A stretch of 64,000 nt of DNA, from NCBI RefSeq assembly GCF_044324785.1, contig NZ_CP172127.1; one strand, 5' to 3'. A program made the position numbers and the translations under genes. Of the stretch, positions 4,091 through 4,849 are shown piece after piece. This DNA comes from Escherichia coli (GTDB lineage Bacteria; Pseudomonadota; Gammaproteobacteria; Enterobacterales; Enterobacteriaceae). The notes beneath the pieces were generated by a model that made no database searches, was not told the origin of the DNA, and worked only from the letters and a program-made list of their open reading frames with translations. Within the stretch, counting starts at the first letter, position 1; the number at the start of each line of letters is the position of its first letter.

Positions 4091-4849
4091 ATGAAACAAA
4101 CACAACGTCACAACGGTATTATCGAACTGGTTAAACAGCAGGGTTATGTCAGTACTGAAGAGCTGGTAGAGCATTTCTCCGTCAGCCCGCAGACTATTCG
4201 CCGCGACCTCAATGAGCTGGCGGAGCAAAACCTGATCCTGCGTCACCATGGCGGTGCGGCGCTGCCTTCCAGTTCGGTTAACACGCCGTGGCACGATCGT
4301 AAAGCCACCCAGACCGAAGAAAAAGAGAGGATTGCCCGCAAAGTGGCGGAGCAAATCCCCAACGGCTCGACACTGTTTATCGATATCGGCACCACGCCGG
4401 AAGCGGTGGCGCACGCGCTGCTTAATCACAGCAATTTGCGTATTGTCACCAACAATCTCAATGTTGCTAACACGTTGATGGTAAAAGAAGATTTCCGCAT
4501 TATTCTCGCCGGTGGCGAACTGCGCAGCCGCGATGGCGGGATCATTGGCGAAGCGACGCTCGATTTTATCTCCCAGTTCCGCCTTGATTTCGGCATTCTG
4601 GGGATCAGTGGCATCGATAGCGACGGCTCGCTGCTGGAGTTCGATTACCACGAAGTTCGCACCAAACGCGCCATTATTGAGAACTCGCGCCACGTTATGC
4701 TGGTTGTCGATCACTCGAAATTTGGCCGTAACGCGATGGTCAATATGGGCAGCATCAGCATGGTAGATGCCGTCTACACCGACGCCCCGCCGCCAGTAAG
4801 CGTGATGCAGGTGCTGACGGACCACCATATTCAACTGGAGCTGTGCTGA
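4091..4849 (+). CDS. glpR: DeoR-family glycerol-3-phosphate regulon repressor
   Basis: 252-aa ORF with N-terminal HTH (STEELVEHFSVSPQTIRRDLNEL); matches my memory of GlpR. Confidence 0.95.
   Translation: MKQTQRHNGIIELVKQQGYVSTEELVEHFSVSPQTIRRDLNELAEQNLILRHHGGAALPSSSVNTPWHDRKATQTEEKERIARKVAEQIPNGSTLFIDIGTTPEAVAHALLNHSNLRIVTNNLNVANTLMVKEDFRIILAGGELRSRDGGIIGEATLDFISQFRLDFGILGISGIDSDGSLLEFDYHEVRTKRAIIENSRHVMLVVDHSKFGRNAMVNMGSISMVDAVYTDAPPPVSVMQVLTDHHIQLELC

Follow-up and report, generated by a model that had tools for sequence, protein, structure and literature searches.

A 19-bp tail-to-tail overlap of glpR and rtcR in Escherichia coli: an ordinary convergent overlap that probably arose through a stop-codon change

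The window analysed here is a stretch of 64,000 nucleotides of Escherichia coli (NCBI RefSeq assembly GCF_044324785.1, contig NZ_CP172127.1), in which two regulator genes, glpR and rtcR, run towards each other and meet at their 3′ ends, with glpE, glpG, rtcB and rtcA around them. The gene glpR is the final gene in glpEGR, and its product, a protein of the DeoR family, represses the glycerol-3-phosphate regulon; rtcR encodes the sigma-54-dependent activator whose target is the rtcBA RNA-repair operon. The features at the junction of the two genes are as follows (positions are those of the window):

4091-4849, plus strand: glpR, an ORF of 252 aa that matches NCBIfam PRK10906 and is annotated by RefSeq in strain N3
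4831-6429, minus strand: rtcR, an ORF of 532 aa that matches NCBIfam NF038308 and is annotated by RefSeq
4831-4849, both strands: tail-to-tail overlap of glpR and rtcR, 19 bp
4834-4848, minus strand: the RtcR tail QHSSS (residues 528-532), antisense of the last codons of GlpR

The stop codon of glpR is the TGA at 4847-4849 on the plus strand, and the encoded protein ends in ...HIQLELC*; the stop codon of rtcR is the TGA at 4833-4831 on the minus strand, which reads TCA on the plus strand, and its protein ends in ...LTWEAVQDQHSSS*. That is to say, each stop codon sits within the coding sequence of the partner on the opposite strand. In the shared 19 bp, glpR has the last base of codon 247, codons 248-252 and its stop, and rtcR has a single base, the last, of codon 527, then codons 528-532 (QHSSS) and its stop; the glpR stop starts one base past rtcR codon 527. 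This is the arrangement that the preliminary description had put forward, a convergent 3′ overlap of 19 bp with stops at 4847-4849 and 4831-4833, and it is borne out by the sequence, by the ORFs and by the RefSeq annotation.

Each of the two ORFs is a real protein-coding gene, as its NCBIfam match lies far above the cut-off and RefSeq agrees with it. GlpR scores 552.8 bits against PRK10906, the enterobacterial GlpR equivalog (cut-off 331), over profile positions 1-252 of 252, and RtcR scores 850 bits against NF038308, the RtcR equivalog (cut-off 650), over residues 1-527 of 532. Since the RtcR family profile alignment ends at residue 527, five residues short of the annotated C-terminus, it might be supposed that the overlap is an annotation artefact produced by one mis-called stop codon. 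However, an annotator may choose a start codon differently, but not a stop codon, and there is in the sequence no in-frame stop ahead of 4833-4831 in rtcR or of 4847-4849 in glpR, on which ground a mis-called stop was rejected. Moreover, both gene ends are conserved and identically annotated across E. coli, and GlpR aligns to the final position of its profile. Recoding or ribosomal frameshifting would be the sole ways to shift the ends, and there is no sign of either, so that an artefact has next to no chance of being the explanation.

The junction is a nearly constant property of the species. Among 5,426 complete E. coli genomes, 5,425 are matched by the 4-kb stretch 3000-7000 of the window, best of all strain N3 (98.8%), and 5,424 have the junction. 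RefSeq annotates the identical 19-bp overlap in E. coli N3, and a 19-bp overlap also in K-12 MG1655 (rtcR 3558268-3559866, glpR pseudogene 3559848-3560605) and in one strain of the divergent 92% class. The overlap is real and is already on record in the RefSeq annotation. In the MG1655 reference, glpR (L002 3349-4106) is a pseudogene with a frameshift near codon 51 and a stop at about codon 106, whereas in the window glpR is intact.

Of the 5,426 complete E. coli genomes, 568 (about 10%) lack the interior of rtcR, JJ2434 and the GTDB representative strain being examples, and the glpR end is kept; no compensating change at the glpR end was found in the two rtcR-deleted strains examined. The remnants of rtcR (L023 3500-3611; L024 2592-3378) take different forms: in SCPM-O-B-8794 the last 33 codons are left and adjoin malT, and in JJ2434 the last 399 bp are left, fused to a partial rtcA; the 19-bp stretch is kept in both. 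These differing remnants suggest more than one deletion event. In ETEC1701 (L025 1931-4056) a natural deletion spans the junction; glpR is annotated without its C-terminus, rtcR is shortened to 1,572 bp, and the two annotations overlap by 64 bp, so that one lesion harms both regulators. The rtc locus of the window itself differs from that of most strains in its degree of identity: the rtcR interior (window 5200-6400) shows 90-95% identity to 3,461 E. coli genomes and at least 99% only in N3, and the junction (window 4740-4940) shows at least 99% identity in 3,520 E. coli genomes. The rtc locus here looks like a divergent allele, probably a recombinant one.

For comparison, the junction was measured in related enterobacterial loci fetched for this purpose. 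In all the Enterobacteriaceae that were examined, the two genes converge and meet without a spacer; in Serratia fonticola, rtcR does not adjoin glpR. The length of the overlap was as follows:

4 bp: Salmonella (L027); TTAA, common to two TAA stops
4 bp: Superficieibacter electus; CTAA
4 bp: one metagenomic enteric contig
19 bp: Escherichia spp., E. albertii and Klebsiella oxytoca
35 bp: Intestinirhabdus alba; other frame
38 bp: genome L031; other frame, with rtcR called as two separate ORFs

The two proteins behave differently at this junction. The C-terminus of GlpR, QLELC*, is invariant in nine enterobacterial loci, and the C-termini of RtcR vary by group (...QDQHSSS, ...LKDQHSSS, ...VLQN, ...KEMAN, ...KEITA and ...ISTAPAEYGDR). 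In eleven non-enteric homologues of RtcR, the 5-12 residues past the NDADRLRKYLxxFxLxW motif are unrelated in sequence and in length. From this variability, the RtcR tail past the conserved ...RKYLARFGLxW motif is presumably dispensable. As a separate observation, rtcR is called as two ORFs in several genomes and contigs other than E. coli (L028 1526-3118; L030 1502-3073; L031 281-1848), for example of 318 + 205 aa, 331 + 190 aa and 383 + 115 aa; these split calls suggest frameshift or pseudogenisation in some enterobacterial lineages, or else assembly errors.

The origin of the 19-bp state can be followed in the alignment of Salmonella and E. coli, which is gapless at the junction and shows identical spacing. 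The rtcR strand reads ...CAG AAT TAA CAC AGC TCC AGT TGA in Salmonella, where the stop is TAA, and ...CAG GAT CAG CAC AGC TCC AGT TGA in E. coli; the TAA stop of Salmonella rtcR aligns with the E. coli codon CAG for Gln528 (4848-4846). On the glpR strand the differences between Salmonella and E. coli are the Cys codon (TGT/TGC) and the stop codon (TAA/TGA), and it is these two bases that, on the rtcR strand, make CAG out of TAA. In the Enterobacteriaceae the rtc locus lies right against the 3′ end of glpR, without a spacer, and in the short state, as in Salmonella, only TTAA is shared, with a TAA stop for either gene. Escherichia and K. oxytoca have TGA in place of TAA as the stop of glpR, and this stop-to-stop change in glpR abolishes the rtcR stop, turning its TAA into a Gln codon (now CAG) and lengthening the overlap to 19 bp. 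RtcR thereby gains five codons (QHSSS), antisense to the last codons of glpR, up to the next in-frame TGA. Convergent overlaps have been attributed to stop-codon movement in general (PMC4161906).

The other states can be placed beside this one with more caution. In the 35- and 38-bp states, the glpR stop has the TGA form and the sequence just upstream of this stop is 7 nt shorter than in E. coli, and this would put rtcR in the other frame. The distribution of the 19-bp state (Escherichia, K. oxytoca) and the 4-bp state (Salmonella, Superficieibacter) does not fit one change on the genus tree, which is the expected one; it must therefore be assumed that TAA and TGA toggled repeatedly, or that the locus was transferred, and the change may have gone in either direction.

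The third codon positions of glpR and rtcR coincide throughout 4831-4849, and the three substitutions that occur within the overlap in Escherichia and K. oxytoca fall on these common wobble sites and leave both proteins unchanged. Because the wobble positions coincide, the overlap costs almost nothing, and neither gene is appreciably constrained by it. In the same way QHSSS is, by our inference, largely dictated by glpR: since the last residues of GlpR are fixed, the constancy of this tail in the 19-bp lineages need not be a sign of selection on RtcR. As for the length, the rtcR frame read as the antisense of glpR contains 8 stops in 252 codons, the first of them five codons in, and a length of 19 bp is not beyond chance expectation. 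In a census of E. coli, 75 convergent overlaps were counted among 663 overlapping adjacent pairs (PMC4161906).

Beside the frame used by rtcR, the codon-aligned antisense frame of glpR is without any stop and forms a 'shadow' ORF of 260 codons (window 4085-4867, minus strand), antisense to all of glpR, into the start of which the frameshifted rtcR fragments P0015, P0032 and P0096 read for about 49 codons. The sequence of this shadow ORF gives no sign of a gene.

In summary, the overlap is read here as an incidental and nearly cost-free tail-to-tail overlap, a by-product of a stop-codon change, for which no regulatory role is required or indicated; the probability of this reading is put at roughly 85%. 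The abutment of the two genes without a spacer, constant across genera, could itself be under selection.

The ends of the transcripts are a further property of the junction. It had been stated beforehand that there is no room for a terminator between the two genes, and this holds: there is no intergenic DNA, and no site resembling an intrinsic terminator lies at the junction. In a consensus scan of 2500-7000 for intrinsic terminators, 7 sites were found against 5.7 ± 2.5 in shuffles, none of them at the junction, and a G+C-rich hairpin with a U tract past the stop codon was not found near it. As there is no intergenic DNA, each complete mRNA must run into the other gene. For the glpEGR strand, the end inside rtcR is supported by mapping data from K-12 MG1655, in which the minus strand is the sense strand of glpEGR. 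One published Rho termination region, at minus-strand position 3559514 of MG1655, falls antisense to rtcR; it is given a Rho score of 8.9 and a p value of 2.7e-27 (PMC7815308 Supplementary file 2). Without bicyclomycin, there were 154 reads in the 800 nt upstream of 3559514 and 29 in the 800 nt downstream, and with bicyclomycin there were 153 upstream and 256 downstream (PMC7815308). Read-through on the glpEGR strand thus rises about 9-fold with bicyclomycin, from which it follows that the termination is Rho-dependent. Position 3559514 lies about 334 nt past the glpR stop, at about 5183 of the window if there are no indels between the two, as is assumed in this conversion on the ground that both rtcR genes encode 532 aa. 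The corresponding feature is:

4850-5183, plus strand: untranslated glpEGR read-through, antisense to the 3′ end of rtcR, its limit being the equivalent of the Rho region

The Rho region is separated from the stop codon by more than 50 nt, as would be expected if Rho can load only on untranslated RNA (PMC7815308). It is one of 1,078 Rho-dependent termination regions, from which no difference is known, and it falls in the 'antisense' class, the largest at 51.5% (PMC7815308). The first 90 nt or so past the glpR stop have a C/G ratio of 1.3, where the 75th percentile of the window is 1.15 and the 90th 1.39; such a value is compatible with Rho loading, but unremarkable as a C-rich rut signal. The mapping comes from MG1655, whose glpR frameshift leaves about 440 nt of glpR untranslated, and because of this Rho could load earlier there, so that the site of termination may differ in a glpR+ strain such as the one in the window. 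No curated Term-seq 3′ ends and no other Rho regions were found on either strand of MG1655 3559400-3560599 in three growth conditions, and the supplements of the SMRT-Cappable-seq and transcriptional-interference studies name neither glpR nor rtcR. The earlier claim that both transcripts end inside the other gene is therefore supported for the glpEGR strand, by the Rho region about 334 nt into rtcR; the transcripts of rtcR would, on the same geometry, end inside glpR. As one consequence of the arrangement described above, transcripts end within the neighbouring gene, and those of glpEGR do so via Rho, a few hundred nucleotides into rtcR, as in MG1655.

Two structures near the junction were considered. 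The first straddles the glpR stop codon:

4837-4863, plus strand: 10-bp hairpin with the glpR stop codon in its loop, -16.4 kcal/mol

It has -16.4 kcal/mol in the glpR sense and -11.5 kcal/mol in the rtcR sense and is without a U tract; the segment that matches it forms a weak structure in Salmonella and Superficieibacter and another one in K. oxytoca. As a functional element it was rejected, having no U tract and not being conserved, and it is judged incidental. The second is a 9-bp perfect inverted repeat inside rtcR (4880-4888/4929-4937, CGCGCCAGG/CCTGGCGCG), which is followed by TTTTGG on the rtcR strand, 45 nt ahead of the stop. This repeat was tried as an ORF-internal terminator or an arfA-like processing site and dismissed, since no covariation was found in 21 rtcR sequences, in which its pairing is kept in 78.3% of cells against 77.5% in shuffles; it is accounted for by the codons of the conserved SRQ and YLAR residues. 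A search of Rfam with window 2500-9000 at E <= 1 gave no match.

In view of the hairpin at 4837-4863, the junction might be conceived as an overlapping bidirectional terminator of the collision type known from SEnd-seq, in which a shared hairpin pauses the polymerases coming from both directions and sets both 3′ ends. The glpR-rtcR junction resembles these terminators in lying between convergent genes without a canonical intrinsic terminator and in forming a hairpin in E. coli, and such terminators sit between convergent genes and are unlike intrinsic terminators (bioRxiv 10.1101/2022.10.23.513370). It differs from them in that glpEGR transcripts end in a Rho-dependent manner about 334 nt downstream, inside rtcR, whereas the class is described as Rho-independent (bioRxiv 10.1101/2022.10.23.513370), and in that the hairpin is not conserved, the matching segment being weakly folded in Salmonella and Superficieibacter. 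Term-seq of MG1655 in three growth conditions likewise gives no mapped 3′ ends at or near the junction. The Rho dependence together with the displaced region of termination argues against the collision model here, and such a terminator is regarded as highly improbable.

It had further been suggested that the overlap creates transcriptional interference or antisense control between glpR and rtcR, for which no support was found: the length of the overlap varies, there is no conserved structure, and Rfam gives no match. In such a reading the overlap would be a regulatory device, by which transcription of each gene lowers the expression of the other through polymerase collision, or through 3′ pairing and cleavage by RNase III, and glycerol regulation becomes coupled to RNA repair. 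Several facts agree with this. Complete mRNAs of glpR and rtcR necessarily have 19 nt or more of complementary sequence; transcripts of the glpEGR strand reach about 330 nt antisense into rtcR, and further under Rho inhibition (downstream reads 29 → 256); the arrangement without a spacer is kept in all Enterobacteriaceae examined; and arfA-mscL, a comparable tail-to-tail pair of E. coli, shows antisense regulation (PMC10070815). The last of these is the closest parallel, being like glpR-rtcR a convergent enterobacterial pair with transcripts complementary at their 3′ ends, and the co-location of arfA and mscL is enriched in the Enterobacteriaceae (PMC10070815). However, in arfA-mscL the complementary region is about 64 nt and has a measured effect on mRNA (PMC10070815), whereas the overlap length of glpR-rtcR is not conserved.

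From one genus to another the overlap varies between 4 and 38 bp, so that the complementary region is not conserved among relatives with the same arrangement of genes, and because of this variable length a selected function is disfavoured. The hairpin at the junction is not conserved either, no Term-seq 3′ ends or further Rho regions appear in MG1655 3559400-3560599, and few reads come from the glpR strand (154 in 800 nt). Moreover, 568 of the 5,426 E. coli genomes do without the rtcR interior, and the two strains with the deletion that were looked at show no compensating change at the glpR end. The searched literature gave no functional link between the regulons; as far as titles and abstracts tell, the two genes are mentioned together there in genome-wide or otherwise unrelated studies, or else in tables of gene categories. 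A regulatory role for the overlap is thus considered unlikely.

A narrower form of antisense control can be formulated around the Rho region. The Rho-limited read-through of glpEGR may act as a tunable antisense brake on rtcR, enabled by the conserved abutment of the two genes without a spacer, though this is very unlikely. If it were true, impaired Rho or impaired translation, which are Rtc-inducing conditions, would raise antisense RNA across the 3′ third of rtcR about 9-fold, the rise observed under bicyclomycin, and lower the supply of RtcR, and the status of Rho or the transcription of the glycerol regulon would be linked to the capacity for RNA repair.

The incidental overlap left by a stop-codon change agrees, finally, with what is seen in the convergent overlapping pairs of bacteria. 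In these, as in glpR-rtcR, two genuine genes of opposite strand have their last codons in common over a short overlap, with a phase in which the third codon positions coincide and an origin traceable to a stop-codon change, and glpR-rtcR differs from them in nothing of substance. The glpR/rtcR overlap is an ordinary convergent overlap of a common class, found in every E. coli annotation and already known. If the antisense RNA from read-through does affect rtcR, this would be a modest addition to the cases of regulation by 3′ overlap. The locus also offers a worked example of how a convergent neighbour can lose its stop inside a shared TTAA through a silent change from TAA to TGA, at almost no cost. 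It carries at the same time a warning for the handling of such loci, that is, deleting the end of either glpR or rtcR, or inserting a cassette there, will damage both genes, as in ETEC1701.
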